Origin: Bdellovibrio sp.
GTDB taxonomy: Bacteria; Bdellovibrionota; Bdellovibrionia; Bdellovibrionales; Bdellovibrionaceae
Direction of reading: 5' to 3'
Length of the DNA: 64,000 nt
NCBI GenBank assembly: GCA_036676395.1
Contig: JAKFCY010000002.1
Location: 320,001 to 384,000, forward strand
Shown here: in pieces, positions 1 through 51,082 of the stretch
Position numbering within the stretch: the stretch's first letter is position 1
Layout: every line of letters starts with the position of its first letter
Made by a program: the position numbers and the translations under genes
The notes under the pieces: model-generated
The model's database searches: none
The model's input: only the letters and a program-made list of their open reading frames with translations
What the model was told of the DNA's origin: nothing

Positions 1-3000
1 GCAAATGAAGTGCAGCAAAAATTTGGTGAGCGCTGGTGGACAGGTTTACATCCTGAAAAATGTACCGGCTTTGATCGCGAGAAAAAATACCTGGCGGCCT
101 TGCCATTAATTAATTTAGAAATTTGCACGCGCCAAGATGTGATGGATTATTTCGACAACACTTGGACGCTGACTGAAATTTTGTTCGCTGGTCTTAAACA
201 TGAATCAACCTACATTCGTCCGCCGTATCATCAGCTGCGTCATCCGCTGATGTTTTATTACGGTCACCCGGCAGTTTTATTTTTAAATAAACTTCGTTTA
301 GCTGGGGTTGTGGATAATCCTGTGGATTTGTACCTCGAGAAAGTCCTTGAAACCGGCGTGGATGAGATGTCTTGGGATGATATGGCTAAAAATGAAATGG
401 AATGGCCAAATGTGGCAACCGTTCATGAGTATCGCCAAAAAATTTATAACTTAATTAAAAATGTAATTCAGACTCATCCAGATCTGGATTTAGCCGCACG
501 CAAAGCGAAAAATATTCAAATAGGGCCGCAACATCCGCTGTGGTCGTTATTTATGGGTTTTGAACATGAAAAAATACATTTCGAAACTAGCAGCGTGTTG
601 ATGCGCGAACTTCCGATTGAATTAGTTGAAACTCCGAAATACTGGGCGCCACTTTATGATTCTAAATCTACAAAGACGGCAAAACCAGCAGCAGGAAAAG
701 ATTTTCCAGCGAACACTTGGAGTGCGCAAAAAGGATCTCTGGTTAGTTACGGAAAATCTGAAAACGCACCAAGTTTTGGTTGGGATAACGAATACGGTTA
801 CAGAAAATCTAAAACAAAAGATTTTCAGTTAACTGAACAACTTATCAGTAATGGTGAATATTTTGATTTCGTCGCAAGTGGCGCTTATCAAGAAGATAAA
901 TACTGGCAGGCTGAAGGTTTGATGTGGCGTAAGTTTCGCAATACCAAACGCCCGACGTTTTGGGTGGCTTACGGGCCAGAAGGTTTACACGAGTATAAAT
1001 TAAGAACCATTTTTGAAATTATTGATATGCCTTGGGATTGGCCGGCAGAAGTAAATTTTCACGAAGCGCAAGCCTATTGCCGTTGGAAGCAAGAACAAGA
1101 CAAGAGCACTCTTCACTATCGGTTAATCACCGAAGCTGAATTTGTTTCGTTGAAACTGAAATTACCAACTGATGAAGTTTTGCAAAACGCCGAATATAAA
1201 AAATCTGGTACGGTACATTCTGAAAAATTTAATTTTAATTTTCATCACGCATCACCGCGTCCAGTGAATACGGGCAGCGCTGATTCGGGTATCAGAGATT
1301 TAATGGGTAATGTGTGGCAATGGGCCGAAGATCAATTTAATCCGCTTGAAGGATTTAAAATTAATAAATTATACGATGATTTTTCAACGCCGTGTTTTGA
1401 TGGTAAACATCAAATGATCTTAGGCGGAAGTTTTATCAGTTGTGGTCACGAAGCCAGCATCAATGCACGTTTTCACTTTCGCCCACATTTTTTTCAACAT
1501 GCAGGGTTTCGTATAGCGGCCACTTTAGATGGGTCGCATGACAATGCGGCCATTCGATTAAAACACGACACACAATACGTGCACACCAAACGTGAAAACG
1601 TTTTAGATCAAATGCAAAAAGAGGATTGGTGGAAGTCAGTTCAACAGCCGATGGAGTTATCTGAAGAAGAAATTCAGAAAGCTTATGAAGCTGCCGAAAA
1701 ATTTGTCAGAAATTTTGAACACAACCGTAAAGACGTGTCTCCGATGGGAACGGCTTTAGATCCATACACCAATGATATTAAAAAAGATTATCGCAGACCG
1801 TATCAGACGACAAAAAACTTTCCTGAAACTCCGGAAAGTTTTGAAAAGCTTGTGCAATTTATTGCCACTGACATTGCGCCATTAGGGCAGCAGCCTGGAC
1901 ATCCAGGTTATATGGCCTATGTGGCAGGGGCTGCCAATCCGTTAAGTGCTCCGGCGCAAGCGCTGGCGATGACGATGAATCAATTTACTGGGCATTTCAG
2001 TTTAGCACCAGGATTGGTGACTTTAGAAATGGAAGTCATTCGTTGGTTTACGACAATGATGAAATACTCTGAACAAACAGCCACTGGAATTTTAACCGGT
2101 GGTGGTAGCCAGGCAAATATGATGGCCTTAGTCGCAGCCAGAAATAAATTATTCTCGCAAAAATTAGAATTATCTAAAGCCAGATTTTATGCGTCGACAC
2201 AGGTGCATCACTGCATTGGTAAAGCCATCGCATTTTTAGGGTTTCCGAAAGAGTGCCTACGGCTTATTGCCACTGATCAAAATTATTCAATGATCGCCAG
2301 TGAATTAGAAAAATCTATCACTGAAGATTTGAAAAATGGTTTAGTGCCAGTCGCTGTTGTTGGAACAGCCGGAACGACAAATACAGGCTCAGTTGACCCA
2401 TTGGATGCGATCGCAGATATTTGTGAAAAAAATAAAATCTGGTTTCATGTCGATGGGGCCTACGGTGCTTTATTTATGTTAACCGACAAAGGGCAAAAAG
2501 TTTTATCTGGCATTGAACGATCACAGTCAGTAGCTCTTGATCCGCACAAGGCTTTGCAAATTCCGTACGGGGTAGGGTGTTTGTTAATTAAAAATAAAAG
2601 TGATCTTTCAACACAATATGCGGGCAACAGTTCTTACATGCCACCATCACCTGGGTTGCATGAAGAACAATTTAGTTTAATTGATTTTGCCGATATTTCG
2701 CCCGAGTTATCGCGTGATCCGCGCGGATTACGTGTATGGCTTCCGCTAAAAGCGTTTGGTGTTGGCCCGTTTAAATTAAATCTAGAAGAAAAAATTCAAC
2801 TTTCTGATTATTTACATAGTGAACTTAAAAAAATCTCTTTAGTTAAAGTAGTTTCAGCGCCGCATTTAACTATTCAGTCGTTTAATTTAGGTAATACCGA
2901 AAAAACAAAAAAACTTTTAGCTTGGATCAACTCGCAGAATAAAATCTTTTTAAGTGGTTGTGAAATTGGTGGCTGTTTTTCAATTCGTGTGTGTTTGTTA

Positions 3001-3069
3001 GGTTACCGATTGCATTTTACCCAGGTGCAAGAACTCATTCAGTTGATTAAAGAGGGCTTGCATGCCTGA
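1..3069 (+). CDS. Fusion of an OvoA-type non-heme iron 5-histidylcysteine sulfoxide synthase (DinB-like + FGE-sulfatase domains) with a group II PLP-dependent amino-acid decarboxylase; probably 5'-truncated by the window
   Basis: OvoA-type motifs RHPLMFYYGH, GVDEMSWDD, HEKIHFE (HxxxHxE iron site, 565-585), FGWDNEYG, LYDDFS, HFFQHAGFR. C-terminal half from ~1650 has HPGYMAY, GGGSQAN, AGTTNTGSVDPL, WFHVDGAYG and DPHK (PLP lysine, 2548-2550). The frame is open from base 1, so GTG at 10 may not be the real start. Confidence 0.9.
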   Translation, partial: ANEVQQKFGERWWTGLHPEKCTGFDREKKYLAALPLINLEICTRQDVMDYFDNTWTLTEILFAGLKHESTYIRPPYHQLRHPLMFYYGHPAVLFLNKLRLAGVVDNPVDLYLEKVLETGVDEMSWDDMAKNEMEWPNVATVHEYRQKIYNLIKNVIQTHPDLDLAARKAKNIQIGPQHPLWSLFMGFEHEKIHFETSSVLMRELPIELVETPKYWAPLYDSKSTKTAKPAAGKDFPANTWSAQKGSLVSYGKSENAPSFGWDNEYGYRKSKTKDFQLTEQLISNGEYFDFVASGAYQEDKYWQAEGLMWRKFRNTKRPTFWVAYGPEGLHEYKLRTIFEIIDMPWDWPAEVNFHEAQAYCRWKQEQDKSTLHYRLITEAEFVSLKLKLPTDEVLQNAEYKKSGTVHSEKFNFNFHHASPRPVNTGSADSGIRDLMGNVWQWAEDQFNPLEGFKINKLYDDFSTPCFDGKHQMILGGSFISCGHEASINARFHFRPHFFQHAGFRIAATLDGSHDNAAIRLKHDTQYVHTKRENVLDQMQKEDWWKSVQQPMELSEEEIQKAYEAAEKFVRNFEHNRKDVSPMGTALDPYTNDIKKDYRRPYQTTKNFPETPESFEKLVQFIATDIAPLGQQPGHPGYMAYVAGAANPLSAPAQALAMTMNQFTGHFSLAPGLVTLEMEVIRWFTTMMKYSEQTATGILTGGGSQANMMALVAARNKLFSQKLELSKARFYASTQVHHCIGKAIAFLGFPKECLRLIATDQNYSMIASELEKSITEDLKNGLVPVAVVGTAGTTNTGSVDPLDAIADICEKNKIWFHVDGAYGALFMLTDKGQKVLSGIERSQSVALDPHKALQIPYGVGCLLIKNKSDLSTQYAGNSSYMPPSPGLHEEQFSLIDFADISPELSRDPRGLRVWLPLKAFGVGPFKLNLEEKIQLSDYLHSELKKISLVKVVSAPHLTIQSFNLGNTEKTKKLLAWINSQNKIFLSGCEIGGCFSIRVCLLGYRLHFTQVQELIQLIKEGLHA

Positions 3070-4201
3070 TTTAGAGTTTTTTAAATCACAATTTAATAAA
3101 ACTGAATTAGTTCATTTAAACAATGCAGGTCTTCAGCCAATCACCCGCGCGGCACGAGAAAAAATTGATTACTGGTCGCGCCGCTTTTGGGAAGAGGGCT
3201 ATAACACAGATAAAGATTACGCAACCGATGTGACTCATGCCCGTAAAAGTTTAGCTACTATGATTGGTTGCGAAACCGGCGAAGTAGCTTTTTTTACTTC
3301 TACTGCGGGCGCGGTTAACCAAGTGGCTTTTGCTTGCGGATTAAAATCCGGTGACGAAGTGGTTATGTGGGATCAAGAGTACGGAAGCCACTTATACCCA
3401 TGGAAAGCCGCTTGTGACCAAGCCGGTGCCAAACTTGTGATCGTCGAATCAGATGAAAACTTAGCAACACCAATGCAAAGATATTTAAAAGCCATTACGC
3501 CAAAAACCAAAATCATCGCTTTTAGTTGGGTGCAGTTTACGGCGGCAAGCCAAATGGAAGACATCAAGCACGTTATTCAAACAGCAAAGCAAAAAGGAAT
3601 TTTAGTTTTCGTCGATATTATTCAGGGTTTTGGCTTACATCCTTGTGATATCTGGGCGTGGGGTGCTGATGCTGTCATGGGCGGAAGCCACAAATGGCTT
3701 TGTGCTCCGGTGGGCGTAGGTTTTTTAGCGCTACGAAAAAATTTAATTCCCCAATTTAAACCACATGTGATCGGTATGTACACTTACGGAACCTGTGATG
3801 ACCCATCTGATTTTGCCTGCGAACCAAAACGTGATGCGACGAAATTTGAACCTGGTTCAAAACAAGTTTTAGAAATCACGGCTCTTGGTGCATCACTTGA
3901 TGTGATTCAAAAAGTGGGTGTGAAGACAATCGAAACTGAAGCTTTAAGATTAGCAAAAATTTTACGTTCAGGAATTATCAATTTAGGTTATGAAGTTGTA
4001 TCTCCTTATCAAGGCGAACAAGTGCATTCAACACCGTTTATTAATTTTAAACCAAAAGGCGCGATGAGCAAAAAAGAATTGTCTGATAAATTGAACGCGC
4101 AAAAGATTTTTCACGCAGTTCGCGGCCCGGGTTTACGTTTTACACCGACGGCCTTTAATAGCGAAACTGATCTTGAAAAAGCCCTTTTAGCTTTAAAATA
4201 A
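3062..4201 (+). CDS. Aminotransferase class V PLP enzyme, EgtE/Egt2-like C-S (sulfoxide) lyase candidate
   Basis: HLNNAG, VDIIQGFG, GSHKWLCAPVGVG (PLP Lys). No C-terminal catalytic Cys loop (RxGHHC/SSGSAC) as in NifS/SufS. ATG overlaps the upstream gene's stop by 8 nt. Confidence 0.8.
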   Translation: MPDLEFFKSQFNKTELVHLNNAGLQPITRAAREKIDYWSRRFWEEGYNTDKDYATDVTHARKSLATMIGCETGEVAFFTSTAGAVNQVAFACGLKSGDEVVMWDQEYGSHLYPWKAACDQAGAKLVIVESDENLATPMQRYLKAITPKTKIIAFSWVQFTAASQMEDIKHVIQTAKQKGILVFVDIIQGFGLHPCDIWAWGADAVMGGSHKWLCAPVGVGFLALRKNLIPQFKPHVIGMYTYGTCDDPSDFACEPKRDATKFEPGSKQVLEITALGASLDVIQKVGVKTIETEALRLAKILRSGIINLGYEVVSPYQGEQVHSTPFINFKPKGAMSKKELSDKLNAQKIFHAVRGPGLRFTPTAFNSETDLEKALLALK

Positions 4202-4288: not shown

Positions 4289-4306
4289 GCTCCCATGAGG
4301 GAATGC

Positions 4307-6430
4307 ATGAGCAAACTAGTTTTACTTATCAGTTTGATGATGAGCTTTATTGCCATTAAAGCTAATGCTTTATCAGGTGAGGATCAAATTAAAGCTGATT
4401 GTTATAAAAAAACAGGAAGCTACGGTGGATCTAATCCGAAGTCTCCGTACCAGTTATGTTTGCGTGCAAACGGTATTCTTAAAGTTGAAAGAAACGTCAG
4501 CGGCAGCGATGATAAATCGAAAGCAGATGCGCGTATCTGTAATGCCAGTAATCCACTTTGTAGTAAATGTATCGGTCTTTATGGTTCTGGTGATGCGAAA
4601 AGTGCCAGAACAAAAATTACAGAATGCGTTCAACGCGAAGAAAATAAACGAGCTTCAGCTGCAAAGCCAAAACCAAAAGAGCCAACCATTAATGGCGGAC
4701 GACTACAAGAAGTCACAGTTACAGCGCGGGCTCCGTGTTCAAAAACAAATCCACGTAATTGCACAACGATGACGGCATGTGAAACAAACAATGGCGTATG
4801 GAGCGACCAAGCTCAAGCCTGTGCCGCGACGCCATGCCCGACAGGAACTACGCCTGATCCTCGCGATTCAAAATATTGTGTTTGTGATAGCGAAATGACC
4901 CCGTATTCAATTGAACGTGGTTCAGCACAGCAATGTCCGGCCATGTGTAAATCCGAAGATCATAAAGAGTATAATATCGTTGTTCGCGGTTGTATTTGCG
5001 CGTCCGGTTTCGAAGACCGCACCGGGGCAGGCACATGCGTAAGTAAAGTAGCCGCTCCTGCGTCGCAAGTGGCAGCTTGTATCCAAGAGTTACAAGATAA
5101 AATTACTGCCTGTAATACGGCCTCTACAGCGGCGGTCGAAAAATGTGATCCAAAACGTGAATCACGTGAGGGAGATTCTCTTGATGCTCTTCAAGGTTTA
5201 TTCCAGGGTGCTGCCGTGGCCGGTGGTGCTGCCGGAAACTGTGGGCAGGCTGCCATTGCCGGTTCTACGGGTTATTATGCTATCGAAGAATTGCGCGGAG
5301 GCTGTGATAATGAAATTAGCGCCTGCAAAACAAGCTGCGGTGATGCTACGGCGTACATCAATGCAAATAAAGACCGTGTTTACCAAAAATGTCGTGCAAA
5401 AGCTTGGGATGATCATCAATGTTTAGCTCCTTCAGCTACGACTTATCGATCGTTTACTGAGGATGCATTCAATGTAGAATGGGACGGAGTAAATAGAGCT
5501 CCGTTCGAACAGCAAATTCAAGCCATGCAAACTAGTGTTACAGATTATAATTCAAGATGCGAAGCTGGCGGAACAGCTGACAGTAACCGTGATAAGATGA
5601 CGGGTTTCATGGATGACATGAATTCAGCGTACAAAAGTGCAAAGCAGTGTGAATGTCAGTTAGGTTCTGGCGCTAATTGTGATAGCCAATCGGGCCCGGC
5701 AGAATGTGCAGGAAACCCTTCGCTTCCTGGTTGTGCGCTAGTTGGAGTTAACTGTTTAAGTGCCACAGACAATTCGCCTAAGTGTGTTTGTTTTAAAAAT
5801 CCGAACAGTGATGAATGTAAAAACATTCAACAAACTAATAATAACTTAAAAGTAAACTCTACTGATGTAAGTGCATTTGCTGGCGTCGGCAGTGGCGTTG
5901 GTGGATCTGCTTCTGGTGGTGGCGATGTTGCTGGAAAAACCGATTCAGGTAATGTGAATGTTGGTGATTTAAGTGGTGTGGGTGCAGATGATGAAGCTAT
6001 CGGCGCTAATGCCTCAGGTACTACAACTGTCGATGCAGGATCACCTTTTGGTGCGGCTGCAGGTGGCGGTAGTGGTGCTGGCGGCAGTTCAGGTGGCGGC
6101 GCAAATGGTGCAACAGCTGCTGAAGCAGACGGTGAAGAGGAAAGCACAGGTAAAAAACTCGGTGGCCTTTTTAATGTGGCAAAGTCTGCATTAGGAAATT
6201 TATTTAAAAAAGGCAAAGACGATAAAGGCACTTATGATCCTGTGACTGGAAAATATATTAATGAAAATGGTTTAGATTCTAAAAAATGGCGTCCTCGTGG
6301 CATGGTGCGCGGGCTAGCTGGTGATACAGAAATCGCCGGCAAGTTCGAAGACATCTGGAAAGTCATGAACCGACAATACAAAATCCAAGATCAGAAAGAC
6401 ACGTTTCTTTTTGGTGGGGAGAAGAAGTAA
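4307..6430 (+). CDS. Secreted Cys-rich/Gly-rich hypothetical protein (paralogue A)
   Basis: Signal peptide MSKLVLLISLMMSFIAIKANA; many spaced Cys; Gly/Ser-rich linker; C-terminal RGLAG...DIWKVMNRQY; SD before ATG 4307. Confidence 0.85.
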   Translation: MSKLVLLISLMMSFIAIKANALSGEDQIKADCYKKTGSYGGSNPKSPYQLCLRANGILKVERNVSGSDDKSKADARICNASNPLCSKCIGLYGSGDAKSARTKITECVQREENKRASAAKPKPKEPTINGGRLQEVTVTARAPCSKTNPRNCTTMTACETNNGVWSDQAQACAATPCPTGTTPDPRDSKYCVCDSEMTPYSIERGSAQQCPAMCKSEDHKEYNIVVRGCICASGFEDRTGAGTCVSKVAAPASQVAACIQELQDKITACNTASTAAVEKCDPKRESREGDSLDALQGLFQGAAVAGGAAGNCGQAAIAGSTGYYAIEELRGGCDNEISACKTSCGDATAYINANKDRVYQKCRAKAWDDHQCLAPSATTYRSFTEDAFNVEWDGVNRAPFEQQIQAMQTSVTDYNSRCEAGGTADSNRDKMTGFMDDMNSAYKSAKQCECQLGSGANCDSQSGPAECAGNPSLPGCALVGVNCLSATDNSPKCVCFKNPNSDECKNIQQTNNNLKVNSTDVSAFAGVGSGVGGSASGGGDVAGKTDSGNVNVGDLSGVGADDEAIGANASGTTTVDAGSPFGAAAGGGSGAGGSSGGGANGATAAEADGEEESTGKKLGGLFNVAKSALGNLFKKGKDDKGTYDPVTGKYINENGLDSKKWRPRGMVRGLAGDTEIAGKFEDIWKVMNRQYKIQDQKDTFLFGGEKK

Positions 6431-6431
6431 T

Positions 6432-8345
6432 ATGAAAAATATCATGATGTACTTATTTATTGTTTTCTCTTTGTTTGGCGTAAGCACAGTATTTGCTGAA
6501 GACTGTGAAACGGCGGGAGAAGTTAAACTTTCGCAGCTGAAGTTTGTCGGTGCAGATCTAAAACCATTACTTCGAAAAAATGGTGCTTGTACTGTCGTTA
6601 AAGCATCGAATGATACTGCAGGGCGAGCTGCCTGTGGAACAAAAAGAGCGGCTCTTAATCCTGGAAATCCTCAGTACACGGGCACAGAAAAGCATGGTAG
6701 CCAGACGAATAATAACTTAGGTTATTACTTCTGTGTGGGCATGAACAAACGAGCAATGTGTAACGATCGTATCAGTGAGCTTGGCAGCACAATGGATATT
6801 GTTTGGAAGCAAACCGGTAGCAACGAGCGTAATGATGGTGATTGTCTTTGTGGAAAAAAAGGCGATGGGTCGACAAAGATGATGGCATGCCCAGTAACCA
6901 AAGCGCAGGTTGATGCCTTTAAAGACGGAAAAACAACAGGCTGTTCTGTTCAGGGCTCTGAAGATGATGGTGATGGAAATTGCCGCTGTCTCGCCGGCGA
7001 GAAAAAAGGAACGGTTGTTCAAGCGGGTGGAACTTGTCCAAAAGATCCTACGCCGCCGGTGGCAACAACAACAGTAAGTCCTGATGACTTTGACGATTGT
7101 TTGGCTGAAGTGAAAGCTGCAAAAGATGGTTGTTCTGAAGATGGAAAAAAAGCTATTGCTAGTTGCAGTAAAGAAGCGCCTGAGGTTAATAAAAATATTT
7201 CTGAAGCCCAGCGGGTGTTGTCGATCGGATTAGACGCCGTTATTGCAAAAAATGCCGGAACTGGTGCTTTAGCCAGTTGTGCAAAAATGGGTGCTGCGGG
7301 AACTTCAGTTATTGAAGCCTTAAGTTTGCTGCGTGAAAGTTGCAAAAAAGAATTAAATAATTGTAAAAAAAGTTGCGAGCAAGCCGGTGTTTTTGGAAAA
7401 AAAACAGAAGAAGAATATATTGCTGAATGTAAAGCTGTGTTTTTAAGTAAAGAAAAAGAATGGACTGAAGAACATGAAAAAGCTTTTAAGCCAATGGTTG
7501 CAGAGTATACAAAATTAGCTGATAACTCAGAAAAATTTTGTAAAGGTGATGTGCAAAAATCTGATAATCAGCTAGATGGTTTTTTGCAAGAATTAGCCAT
7601 GAGCGTACAAAAAGCTGATATCTGCAAATGTCAGCTAACAACATCAAGTGCAGGTAATGAAAATTGTGATAATGTGGCAGGTCCATTAACATGTATTCAA
7701 AATGTGAATCAACCAGGCTGTTCATTTAGTTCTGTAGGTTGTAGTCCAGGTTCAACGCTTCCGGGCTGTCGTAATCCAGTCAATATGACAAATCCAAATG
7801 GTTCAGGCATCGCGATGCCTGCTTCTGGCTTTGCAGGGCCTGGGTTTGCGTCAACAGGCGGCGGTAGCGGAAATTCTGGCAAAGTCGGATTAGGTAATGA
7901 TGATTTTGATTTCTCTGATGAGACTCGTCCCTCAGGTTCAGGCACAGCCACGGCTGATGCAGGTTCGCCATTCGGCACTGCGGCTGGCGGTGGCAGTGGC
8001 GGCGCAGCAGGCGGTGGCGGCGGAGGCGGCGGCACTGGTGATGGCGGCGGCGCGGGCGGCGAAGAAAAAGAAAAAAGCGGCCTTTCTGGATTTTTTCAAA
8101 ATGCAAAAGGTGGTATCGCAAGTTTATTTGGTGGTGGGGCTGATAACAAAAACGCAGCTGCGAAAAAACCAAATAACAAAGCTTATAAGAATGATGTTAA
8201 CGGATTCAGGCCAAAAGCCGGAGTGCGCGGCATGGCTGGATCGAATGAATTTGGCAGTAAAAACCGTGACATTTGGAAGACTATGAACGAACGTTATAAT
8301 GATCAATATCACACATTTATAACGGTGGAGAATCCACAAAAGTAA
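6432..8345 (+). CDS. Secreted Cys-rich/Gly-rich hypothetical protein (paralogue B)
   Basis: Signal peptide MKNIMMYLFIVFSLFGVSTVFA; shares CxCQL, GPxxC...PGC, DAGSPFGxAAGGGSG and RGMAG...DIWKTMNERY with the upstream gene. Confidence 0.85.
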   Translation: MKNIMMYLFIVFSLFGVSTVFAEDCETAGEVKLSQLKFVGADLKPLLRKNGACTVVKASNDTAGRAACGTKRAALNPGNPQYTGTEKHGSQTNNNLGYYFCVGMNKRAMCNDRISELGSTMDIVWKQTGSNERNDGDCLCGKKGDGSTKMMACPVTKAQVDAFKDGKTTGCSVQGSEDDGDGNCRCLAGEKKGTVVQAGGTCPKDPTPPVATTTVSPDDFDDCLAEVKAAKDGCSEDGKKAIASCSKEAPEVNKNISEAQRVLSIGLDAVIAKNAGTGALASCAKMGAAGTSVIEALSLLRESCKKELNNCKKSCEQAGVFGKKTEEEYIAECKAVFLSKEKEWTEEHEKAFKPMVAEYTKLADNSEKFCKGDVQKSDNQLDGFLQELAMSVQKADICKCQLTTSSAGNENCDNVAGPLTCIQNVNQPGCSFSSVGCSPGSTLPGCRNPVNMTNPNGSGIAMPASGFAGPGFASTGGGSGNSGKVGLGNDDFDFSDETRPSGSGTATADAGSPFGTAAGGGSGGAAGGGGGGGGTGDGGGAGGEEKEKSGLSGFFQNAKGGIASLFGGGADNKNAAAKKPNNKAYKNDVNGFRPKAGVRGMAGSNEFGSKNRDIWKTMNERYNDQYHTFITVENPQK

Positions 8346-49416: not shown

Positions 49417-50226
49417 ATGAGAATTTTTGAATTTAACGATTATCGTGATTTTTTGAAAAAACACATTCATTCGCTGCCAAAGCAGGGGCGCGGTGAGATA
49501 TCTAAAATGGCTGAAGCTCTTCAAGTTGCACAACCCCTGATGAGTCAAATTACAACTGGAGTGAAGAACCTTAACTTGGAACAAGCTGACTTATTGTCTG
49601 AATATCTGCATTTTACCGATAAAGAAAAAGCTTATCTGTTTGTGCTCGTGCAAATTGAGCGTGCCGGAAGGCAAACTTTAAAAAAACATTTTATTACTGA
49701 ACGTGAGCGTTTAAAAAAAGACGCCTTAGACGTTCGAACTGTCATTGCTGCGGATAAAAAATTAACTGATGTAGAGAAATCGATTTTTTATTCGAGCTGG
49801 CTTTATCAAGCGGTGCGCTTGTTAACTTCAATGGAAAAACACGAATATTCTAGTGTTGAACAAATTAGTGTAAAGCTTGGTTATGATCGCACAAAGGTGA
49901 GCGAGATTATGTCTTTTTTGTTACAGACAGGTTTGTGCGTGCAAGAGAAGAATCATATTGTTATGGGGCCGTTAAGCACTCACTTAGAGCACACCTCGCC
50001 GCAGCTTGCTCGTCATCATACAAACTGGCGCCATAAAGCGATTCAAAAATTTGACCAGATTTCTGAAGCTGAATTAGTATTTACTGCGCCGATGACTGTA
50101 AGCCGGGCTGATTTTCAAAAAATTCGCGAAGAAATACTGCAGCTTATAAAATCGATGTATAGCACCGTAAAGGCCTCTCCAGGAGAAGAATTAGCCTGTC
50201 TGAATATCGATTTTTTTAAAATTTAG
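49417..50226 (+). CDS. TIGR02147/DUF4423-like HTH protein
   Basis: IFEFNDYRDFL, HTH, FYSSWLY, HHTNWR, CLNIDFF; divergent from the secreted gene. Confidence 0.8.
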   Translation: MRIFEFNDYRDFLKKHIHSLPKQGRGEISKMAEALQVAQPLMSQITTGVKNLNLEQADLLSEYLHFTDKEKAYLFVLVQIERAGRQTLKKHFITERERLKKDALDVRTVIAADKKLTDVEKSIFYSSWLYQAVRLLTSMEKHEYSSVEQISVKLGYDRTKVSEIMSFLLQTGLCVQEKNHIVMGPLSTHLEHTSPQLARHHTNWRHKAIQKFDQISEAELVFTAPMTVSRADFQKIREEILQLIKSMYSTVKASPGEELACLNIDFFKI

Positions 50227-50323
50227 CTCTATGTTTGTCCATAAATTTGACAATCAGGTAACTAGGTAAAAAAATAGCGTTAAATTCACCTTTTCAGAGA
50301 GAAATCTGCTATAAAAAGCCAGA

Positions 50324-51082
50324 ATGAAAAAGCTTATTTCGGCTCTTCTTATTATGAATATGTTGCTGCTAGTTGGCTGTGCCGGTGATGAGCCCTCATC
50401 TAGTAAAAAAACACGCACTGCGCGTAAGGCGAAAAAGGTACTGAGCGAATCTGAAAAAGCTAAATTTATTACACCAACAATTTATTACGTTGCTGATTAT
50501 TCTGCAGAAACACAATGTTCTGATACAGCTGAACTTAACTTAAGAAAATCTAAAAATAATATCGTTAAAATTTCAGTCTGTCGTAAAGTTTTAAAAGGCT
50601 GCACAACGCAGGGAAGTTGTTACATCCAGCTCAGCGGTAAAAAAACGATGCTTAACTATCATAAAAAAGTGAATGGTATGGTTCAGTTTATGTTAGTCGA
50701 TCGCTCTGTGTGTAAATATGGATTAGGGGATTCAAGTGATGCTAAGCAATCATTTAAAATAATGTGCTTAGACCCATTTTATTCAGTGGCCGCAGATACG
50801 GCGATTCATCCGCTGGGTACAGTTATTTACATACCGGCTGTGCGGGGCGCTGCTTTACCCGATGGATCAACTCATGATGGTTATTTTATTGTGCGTGATT
50901 CGGGTGGCAATATTGATGGTCGCGGGCGTTTTGACTTCTTTACAGGCGACGTTGGTCTTAACGCAAGCAACCCGTTTTCAAACCTTGGTCTGGGTGGTGA
51001 GTCGAATTTTGATTATCAAGTTGTCTCAAATAGCGATGCGCAGGGTGTGCGTGAGCGTCGAAAATTTCCGTATTTAAAGTAG
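50324..51082 (+). CDS. 3D-domain (MltA-like) peptidoglycan lipoprotein
   Basis: Lipobox LVGC; SVAAD, DSGG, RFDFFTG (three Asp). Confidence 0.82.
   Translation: MKKLISALLIMNMLLLVGCAGDEPSSSKKTRTARKAKKVLSESEKAKFITPTIYYVADYSAETQCSDTAELNLRKSKNNIVKISVCRKVLKGCTTQGSCYIQLSGKKTMLNYHKKVNGMVQFMLVDRSVCKYGLGDSSDAKQSFKIMCLDPFYSVAADTAIHPLGTVIYIPAVRGAALPDGSTHDGYFIVRDSGGNIDGRGRFDFFTGDVGLNASNPFSNLGLGGESNFDYQVVSNSDAQGVRERRKFPYLK

Follow-up and report, generated by a model that had tools for sequence, protein, structure and literature searches.

The natural thio- and seleno-imidazoles known so far comprise ergothioneine, ovothiol, selenoneine, and ovoselenol. The closest described counterpart of the locus analyzed here is the ovothiol A pathway, in which OvoA, a sulfoxide synthase with a C-terminal OvoC methyltransferase domain, is combined with the lyase OvoB; representatives include Erwinia tasmaniensis and the OvoA_Th2 enzyme of Hydrogenimonas thermophila (structure 8khq). 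Methylation by OvoC is reported to be the last step of ovothiol synthesis (PMC12631010). OvoB is described as a MalY-type enzyme and EgtE, its counterpart in ergothioneine synthesis, as a CsdA-type enzyme, and OvoB lies near only 4.4% of sulfoxide/selenoxide synthase (NHISS) genes (PMC13674229). Here, we describe a related two-gene module at the start of a 64,000-nt stretch of DNA of a Bdellovibrio sp., a soil-dwelling predator (G000:C2:320001-384000, from a genome that is 99.3% complete), referred to below as the window. Its first gene fuses an OvoA-type sulfoxide synthase to a group II decarboxylase-fold domain dependent on pyridoxal 5'-phosphate (PLP), and its second encodes a class-V PLP enzyme. 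By analogy with the known pathways, the module may serve to make an unmethylated, decarboxylated 5-thiohistidine, most simply 5-thiohistamine, a reading that we favor while placing it just short of evenly balanced.

A preliminary description of this DNA, made from the sequence alone, had known of no characterized pathway with this architecture, and this holds within the literature searched (full text, subscription journals outside scope). Queries on thiohistamine, on OvoA together with Bdellovibrio, and on OvoA or OvoB together with a decarboxylase returned nothing relevant. The modifiers of thiohistidine beyond the canonical pathways found there are a 5-thiohistidine acetyltransferase and ATP-grasp dipeptide ligases, with no decarboxylase among them. 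In its available text, a 2021 survey of bacterial OvoA mentions neither a decarboxylase nor Bdellovibrio (PMC8433421), and a 2025 paper on the acetyltransferase 5THNAT states, in the portion available, that no enzymes are known for other 5-thiohistidine derivatives (PMC12631010). In its main text, a 2026 paper on thiohistidine dipeptides names no decarboxylase among the genes that accompany the synthases (PMC13674229). Its counts are of neighboring genes, and a tailoring domain within the synthase gene would have escaped them.

Architecture and conservation of the two-gene module

The fusion protein of 1049 amino acids is encoded by an uninterrupted open reading frame (ORF) that starts at G000:C2:319920, 81 nt 5' of the first base of the window. 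The locus had been given as 1..4201. Its features stand, but because the window edge cuts the ORF, the start coordinate is not that of the gene. The features of the module, in window positions, are as follows.

1..3069, + strand: fusion gene, OvoA-type sulfoxide synthase plus group II PLP decarboxylase-fold domain (ORF lists, Pfam and NCBIfam matches, full-length homologs)
109..1515, + strand: OvoA sulfoxide synthase module, DinB_2 plus FGE-sulfatase (TIGR04344, 579.5 bits; alignment to 8khq; residues of PMC10696552)
238-240 and 256-258, + strand: OvoA cysteine-binding residues Arg107 and Tyr113 (8khq alignment)
265-267, 565-567, and 577-579, + strand: OvoA metal ligands His116, His216, and His220 (8khq alignment)
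1372-1374, + strand: OvoA catalytic residue Tyr485 (8khq alignment)
1516..1806, + strand: inter-domain linker (stretch left between the matches to TIGR04344 and to Pyridoxal_deC of Pfam; bridged by independent contigs)
1807..3066, + strand: group II PLP decarboxylase-fold domain (PF00282, E-value 7.8e-62; best solved relative 4obu)
2206-2208, + strand: small-loop His763 (invariant in 121/121)
2452-2454, + strand: Asp845, the pyridine-nitrogen Asp (invariant in 121/121)
2548-2550, + strand: PLP-binding Lys877 (invariant in 121/121)
2686-2688, + strand: large-loop Phe923, at the catalytic Tyr position (aligned with the Tyr in 'VIDYKDW' of 6eem)
3062-4201, + strand: class-V PLP enzyme of 379 amino acids, candidate C-S lyase (Aminotran_5, E-value 3e-44)
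3692-3694, + strand: class-V PLP-binding Lys211, the SHKW lysine (conserved in 24/24)
3794-3796, + strand: class-V Cys245 (invariant in 24/24)
3818-3820, + strand: class-V Cys253 (invariant in 24/24)

Domain searches with Pfam and NCBIfam confirm that a single ORF links an OvoA-type domain to a PLP decarboxylase-type domain. The NCBIfam model TIGR04344 (ovoA_Nterm) matches the fusion protein at 579.5 bits against a cut-off of 400. Pfam assigns FGE-sulfatase (PF03781, E-value 6e-22), a weak DinB_2 match (PF12867), and Pyridoxal_deC (PF00282, E-value 7.8e-62), the last over profile positions 8-374 of 375. No methyltransferase domain was found in the fusion protein by Pfam, and the decarboxylase-fold domain sits where the methyltransferase usually is, as had been claimed. 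The motifs listed at the outset, HxxxHxE (FEHEKIHFE), GVDEMSWDD, LYDDFS, HFFQHAGFR, and DPHK, are all present in the translation.

The OvoA half retains the residues reported for metal binding, cysteine binding, and catalysis in the solved OvoA. In OvoA_Th2, His71, His162, and His166 are reported as metal ligands, Arg62 and Tyr68 as cysteine-binding residues, and Tyr406 as the catalytic residue, with Phe409 also noted (PMC10696552). In the order His71, His162, His166, Arg62, Tyr68, Tyr406, and Phe409, these correspond to His116, His216, His220, Arg107, Tyr113, Tyr485, and Phe488 of the fusion. All seven are invariant in 121/121 members of the fusion family, and 87 other OvoA-type N-domains are equally conserved at the reported sites. 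OvoA_Th2 (8khq) is the best solved relative of this half at 347 bits, followed by the OvoA-like EgtB-IV structure 8vih at 303 bits. Cys492, which stands in the place of OvoA_Th2 Thr413, was considered as a change specific to the fusion and rejected: Cys is the majority state among the other OvoA-type N-domains (59/87) and thus no mark of the fusion.

A quick, unrooted FastTree phylogeny was built from 113 N-domains. Its main clade of fused forms (23 rows, support 100) falls within a group that contains OvoAs with a methyltransferase, one of them from a Bdellovibrio genome. The host genome has no match to the EgtD family (PF10017) and none to ovoA_Cterm above its cut-off (best 42 bits against 170). 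Without EgtD and an OvoC-type methyltransferase, the product is expected to be unmethylated and not derived from hercynine. The tree placement and the absence of EgtD lend indirect support to the predicted C5 regioselectivity with L-histidine and L-cysteine.

That the fusion might be an assembly artifact was considered and is ruled out. Full-length homologs at 54-95% identity make up at least 120 clusters in a set of 5.8 billion proteins, and all of them contain both PF00282 and PF03781; those with a name are assigned to Bdellovibrio (Bdellovibrio sp. NC01 and B. svalbardensis among them), Pseudobdellovibrio, Bacteriovorax, or Bdellovibrionales and carry the label '5-histidylcysteine sulfoxide synthase'. 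Clustering at 50% left four fused representatives, with identity down to 43%, and a search of genome contigs for related loci gave 12 close relatives. The linker is bridged by independent metagenome contigs (X4 record 7, 1522-3308; X6 record 15, 1392-1808). Within Bdellovibrionota, the fusion occurs in 22/401 genomes, nine of the same genus (G000 counted), two of a sister genus in the same family, and 11 of one genus in another family; in three of these 11, the fusion is fragmentary. Nine of the 401 genomes hold instead an OvoA-type ORF of about 700-740 amino acids that matches the N-domain alone. Three of these nine loci were checked by Pfam, with a clear methyltransferase domain in two and a weak TehB match alone in one. 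No genome among the 401 has both forms.

Two further arrangements bear on the integrity of the fusion. At locus L025 of genome G372, its N- and C-terminal parts lie about 2.3 kb apart (G372:C17:46178-47191 and 49511-50824), each with one in-frame TGA; the gene may have been disrupted by an insertion, or the assembly may be at fault. A 480-amino-acid protein on a 12-kb contig (P0121) is a standalone decarboxylase with 65-67% identity to the fused domain, and could be a naturally split fusion or an artifact of gene calling.

The fusion is strictly paired with the class-V gene. The overlap of 8 nt reported for the two genes is real, the class-V ATG overlapping the TGA of the fusion in ATGCCTGA. 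The class-V gene lies directly 3' of the fusion in 21/21 genomic loci that hold the C-terminal end of the fusion (41-93% identity) and in 15/15 further metagenomic loci, 36/36 in total, so that both the architecture and the gene pair recur in other genomes. Together, the two are the only genes common to 13/13 neighborhoods of 20 kb. Among 65 N-domain-only OvoA loci from the same metagenome scan, none matches the class-V protein at E <= 1e-10. A promoter and terminator scan gave 11 promoter-like and four terminator-like hits, where shuffled sequence led us to expect 11.5 and 6.2, respectively, and placed no terminator 3' of the class-V gene.

As had been described, the class-V enzyme lacks the cysteine loop of desulfurases. 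Its last cysteine is Cys253 of 379 residues, which means that the C-terminal nucleophile loop of SufS-type enzymes is absent; the SufS nucleophile presumably sits near the C-terminus. Alignments to solved SufS and NFS2 structures stop before that loop. On the other hand, Cys245 and Cys253 form an invariant pair within the motif GTCDDPSDFACEP in 24/24 orthologs, and this pair is missing from the class-V genes that lie beside OvoA-type genes without a decarboxylase. The enzyme scores below the family cut-offs of SufS (125 bits against 475) and EgtE (TIGR04343, 56.7 bits against 400), and matches the class I/II aminotransferase family PF00155 weakly, at 29 bits. OvoB being MalY-type and EgtE CsdA-type, the partner resembles EgtE in class and belongs to neither family. 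The earlier comparison with OvoB or EgtE/Egt2 is hence retained for an EgtE-like class and dropped for an OvoB-type enzyme or an EgtE ortholog.

The decarboxylase-fold domain, the candidate pathway, and its alternatives

Among solved structures, the decarboxylase-fold domain scores highest against 4obu (195 bits), followed by GADL1 (153), GAD65 (152), CSAD (145; range 142-145), DOPA decarboxylase (139), and histidine decarboxylase (115). Identity to aromatic decarboxylase structures is about 30-35%. We take 4obu to be the tryptamine-forming tryptophan decarboxylase of Ruminococcus gnavus; its residue aligned with Phe923 is Thr. Where GADL1 and GAD65 have 'FFNQL/YFNQL', an N-terminal motif that presumably binds the acid group of the substrate, the query has 'YMAYV', to which the 'FFSFV' of 4obu is nearer.

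Position 923 varies within the fusion family, with Phe in 55, Tyr in 64, and other residues in two of the 121 members. Phe is fixed in the clade of the window protein and Bdellovibrio; members with Tyr belong to the Bacteriovorax-type clade. The loop motif [VI]DF[CAN]E.SPELSRDFRGLRVW is shared by standalone relatives (P0130-P0240, about 40% identity), most of which have Phe at the position of the plant catalytic Tyr. Sequence comparison thus suggests that either this bacterial branch can do without the catalytic Tyr or its Phe-type enzymes form aldehydes. These standalone relatives belong to a large uncharacterized bacterial subfamily annotated as aromatic amino acid decarboxylases, of which we found no characterized member. 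Members of the same subfamily are also found in N-terminal fusion to AMP-binding (adenylation) domains, in P0334 (1301 amino acids) and P0368 (1012 amino acids), an arrangement that suggests the supply of amines or aldehydes to chemistry like that of nonribosomal peptide synthetases elsewhere. A search for a standalone decarboxylase beside N-domain-only OvoA genes gave two candidates, both rejected: the neighbors of 478 and 485 amino acids at loci L067 and L068 are a thioredoxin-like protein and a photolyase.

A pathway of three steps can be proposed from these components. In step 1, the OvoA module, with Fe(II) and O2, would join L-cysteine to L-histidine at C5 and so form 5-histidylcysteine sulfoxide. 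In step 2, the translationally coupled class-V enzyme would remove the cysteinyl carbon skeleton by beta-elimination to release 5-thiohistidine; this role is suggested by the class to which the enzyme belongs, by its missing desulfurase cysteine loop, and by the strict gene linkage. In step 3, the C-terminal PLP domain would take the alpha-carboxylate off thiohistidine to yield 5-thiohistamine, as suggested by its domain family and by its position in the protein, which is that of the OvoC methyltransferase. Steps 2 and 3 could proceed in either order. For the product, 5-thiohistamine is the most economical reading.

Several observations weigh against this proposal. Phe923 aligns with the Tyr of 'VIDYKDW' in 6eem, through a weak alignment (a 74-amino-acid piece, E-value 0.09). 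Large-loop Tyr350 of PsTyDC is described as the C-alpha proton donor, and the exchange of this Tyr for Phe in plant enzymes is reported to impair C-alpha protonation and to give aldehyde synthases (10.1101/404970). The domain had been called a complete decarboxylase. The profile match and the Lys, Asp, and His residues bear this out, but the large-loop catalytic Tyr is replaced by Phe923 in the window protein, so the statement needs a caveat. No substrate is named by computation either, as the domain falls under every NCBIfam equivalog cut-off (DABA decarboxylase, 157 bits against 900; PanP, 126 against 606; MfnA, 109 against 299; histidine decarboxylase, 71 against 305). The class-V partner is nearer to SufS/NFS2-type desulfurases (104 bits) than to the hercynylcysteine sulfoxide lyase 8irk (33.6 bits). 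It also has an invariant cysteine pair for which the proposal does not account; the pair might serve to reduce the sulfenic acid that remains once the sulfoxide is cleaved, or it might carry sulfur.

The residue at position 923 leads directly to one alternative, namely that the Phe-type PLP domains, that of the window included, are decarboxylation-dependent oxidative deaminases (aldehyde synthases). Steps 1 and 2 would be unchanged, and the products would be 5-thio-imidazole-4-acetaldehyde, NH3, and H2O2; the aldehyde could cyclize through its thiol or be oxidized or reduced. The alignment of Phe923 with the 6eem Tyr, the plant precedent of Tyr350 and its Phe exchange (10.1101/404970), the fixation of Phe in one clade (55/121) and the occurrence of Tyr in the other (64/121), and the prevalence of Phe in the standalone relatives all agree with this reading. 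However, the alignment that defines the position is the weak one just given, and the closest solved relative, 4obu, has Thr there. If 4obu forms tryptamine, the bacterial branch may not depend on a catalytic Tyr. Moreover, the two-gene module is common to Tyr-type and Phe-type loci, and the latter contain no additional gene for an aldehyde dehydrogenase or reductase; the release of H2O2 would be ill-suited to a redox-defense neighborhood. We regard aldehyde formation as unlikely, though worth keeping in sight. An inverted order of reactions seems to us improbable. In that scheme, the PLP domain would convert histidine to histamine, the OvoA module would add cysteine, and the class-V lyase would free 5-thiohistamine. 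The fusion would place histamine formation beside its consumer, and HutD lies directly upstream in Bdellovibrio loci. In OvoA_Th2, contacts to the histidine carboxylate are reported to come chiefly from the co-substrate and a backbone amide, not from side chains (PMC10696552), so an amine acceptor is not obviously excluded. The OvoA site, on the other hand, is the same as in other OvoA-type enzymes at all reported substrate contacts, Cys492 included (59/87 N-domains), the PLP domain scores poorly on the model of bacterial histidine decarboxylase (71 bits against 305), and the fused tail of canonical OvoA is described as acting after the lyase, not before coupling (PMC12631010).

A hypotaurine route had been offered as the alternative in the preliminary description, with the OvoA-like module as a cysteine dioxygenase, the PLP domain as a cysteine sulfinate decarboxylase, and the class-V enzyme handling cysteine sulfinate or a related compound. 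Class-V enzymes without a nucleophilic cysteine can still desulfinate cysteine sulfinate, and structures of GADL1, GAD, and CSAD give scores of 142-153 bits with the PLP domain. OvoA enzymes are also reported to have a cysteine dioxygenase side activity (PMC8943887, PMC10696552). Against this, Tyr485 corresponds to Tyr406, whose mutation is reported to turn OvoA_Th2 into a dioxygenase (PMC10696552), and it is invariant in 121/121; the other residues of the histidine and cysteine sites are all canonical. The best solved match of the PLP domain is the aromatic-type 4obu (195 bits against 145 for CSAD), its 'YMAYV' departs from the 'FFNQL/YFNQL' of GADL1 and GAD65, and a decarboxylase and a desulfinase would compete for one substrate without forming a coherent pathway. 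The route is thus disfavored, and we consider it very improbable. Other divisions of labor can be imagined, in which the decarboxylase-fold domain cleaves the sulfoxide (a decarboxylative beta-elimination at its cysteinyl moiety would be one way) or acts on an unrelated amino acid, while the class-V enzyme does something else, such as handle sulfur or persulfide with its cysteine pair. The module contains two PLP enzymes where ovothiol synthesis needs one, and the class-V partner is most like SufS-type desulfurases and holds the invariant Cys245/Cys253 pair that is missing next to OvoA-type genes without a decarboxylase. Fusions of the same subfamily to adenylation domains (P0334, P0368) speak for diverse substrates. 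Yet we know of no C-S lyase with a group II decarboxylase fold, the C-terminal loop cysteine required in canonical desulfurase chemistry is absent, and the analogy to OvoA/OvoC plus an EgtE-class lyase accounts for both PLP enzymes most simply. Such roles appear to us to have little probability, and the synthesis of a decarboxylated 5-thiohistidine stays the preferred reading.

Genomic surroundings and the predicted role of the product

The genes around the module are consistent with a function in redox defense. In the genus of the window, a glutathione peroxidase family gene lies divergently upstream of the module, just outside the window (L002:9249-9776, minus strand). In Bdellovibrio loci, three genes on the strand of the module lie 5' of it. 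HutD, a protein of histidine-utilization contexts with unknown function, is directly 5' of the OvoA-decarboxylase fusion at L034:12162-15241 and at L035, and MsrB and a 580-amino-acid DsbD/thioredoxin fusion come before it. OvoA-type loci without the decarboxylase adjoin class-V, thioredoxin-like, OsmC, PqiA/MlaD, and glutathione peroxidase genes.

The genome of the window has no match to glutamate-cysteine ligase (PF04262/PF04107) or to glutathione synthetase (PF02955). A correlation between the fusion and glutathione synthesis across genomes was considered and dropped, as PF02955 matches 338/401 genomes, many probably through other ATP-grasp enzymes. The product of the module is probably a redox-active low-molecular-weight thiol, since its neighbors, depending on the lineage, include genes for peroxidase, for methionine sulfoxide reductase, and for thioredoxin-type proteins. 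The fit of the neighboring genes and of the missing glutathione synthesis families to this role is circumstantial.

A broader proposal can be put forward, to which we attach somewhat less confidence than to the module's basic chemistry. Several predatory Bdellovibrionota lineages might make a decarboxylated 5-thiohistidine, a class of thio-imidazole not known before, as their own redox thiol in genomes without glutathione synthesis genes. The Tyr-type enzymes would give 5-thiohistamine and the Phe-type enzymes possibly an aldehyde, perhaps self-cyclized to a thieno-imidazole, while the cysteine pair of the lyase would reduce the sulfenic acid without an external reductant.

If the proposed pathway is correct, a decarboxylase built into OvoA and a dedicated lyase, found in two predatory families, would add a new scaffold to the class, an amine thiol in place of an amino acid, together with a new enzyme activity. 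It may also reveal which small redox thiol is used by bacteria without glutathione synthesis. Because Tyr and Phe both occur naturally at the catalytic-loop position, amine and aldehyde chemistry can be compared directly, in a pathway of only two genes.

Two further observations concern the neighborhood of these genes. Three paralogous cysteine-rich proteins of about 630-710 amino acids flank the module, one upstream of the window (L002:6821-8716) and two inside it (4295-6430 and 6411-8345). Each begins with a hydrophobic stretch resembling a signal sequence and has C-terminal regions rich in Gly and Ala, where all three have a motif in common; they have no Pfam match, and relatives were seen only in loci of the same genus (OWN, L033, L043). 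At another locus (L068:3324-7044, genome G182), genes for a GNAT acetyltransferase and then for a class-V PLP enzyme come after an OvoA-type gene that lacks the decarboxylase. This order of gene types recalls the OvoA-linked 5-thiohistidine N-acetyltransferases of Bacteroidota.

Comparison with described systems

The module shares with ovothiol OvoA an N-terminal DinB/FGE synthase with identical metal-binding, cysteine-binding, and catalytic-Tyr residues, as well as the form of a bifunctional fusion that needs a separate PLP lyase. It differs in that a group II PLP decarboxylase-fold domain replaces the methyltransferase dependent on S-adenosylmethionine. In contrast to OvoB, the candidate lyase is a class-V enzyme that is translationally coupled to the fusion, and unlike ovothiol, the expected product would be neither methylated nor carboxylated. 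With EgtB and EgtE, the module has in common the pairing of an iron sulfoxide synthase with a PLP C-S lyase of the CsdA/class-V type. However, the genome lacks EgtD and the hercynine route, OvoA_Th2 is a better match than EgtB-IV 8vih (347 against 303 bits), the partner is not an EgtE ortholog, and EgtB-type pathways have no decarboxylase.

A second line of comparison concerns tailoring. 5THNAT of Proteiniphilum saccharofermentans is described as an enzyme tied to OvoA that diverts 5-thiohistidine from N-methylation, and it indicates that the 5-thiohistidine class is wider than ovothiol (PMC12631010). The module described here resembles it in this respect. Whereas 5THNAT is an acetyl-CoA-dependent GNAT enzyme encoded by a separate gene, the tailoring candidate here is a PLP decarboxylase-fold domain fused into OvoA. 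This domain has the fold and the triad of Lys, Asp, and small-loop His of aromatic L-amino acid decarboxylases and aldehyde synthases (PsTyDC 6eem, 4HPAAS 6eeq, and 4obu). The alternation of Tyr and Phe in its large loop parallels a switch of product type known from the plant amine- and aldehyde-forming enzymes (10.1101/404970). It departs from these aromatic decarboxylases in its identity of about 30-35%, in its fusion to an iron enzyme, and in its presumed substrate, a thio-imidazole amino acid.

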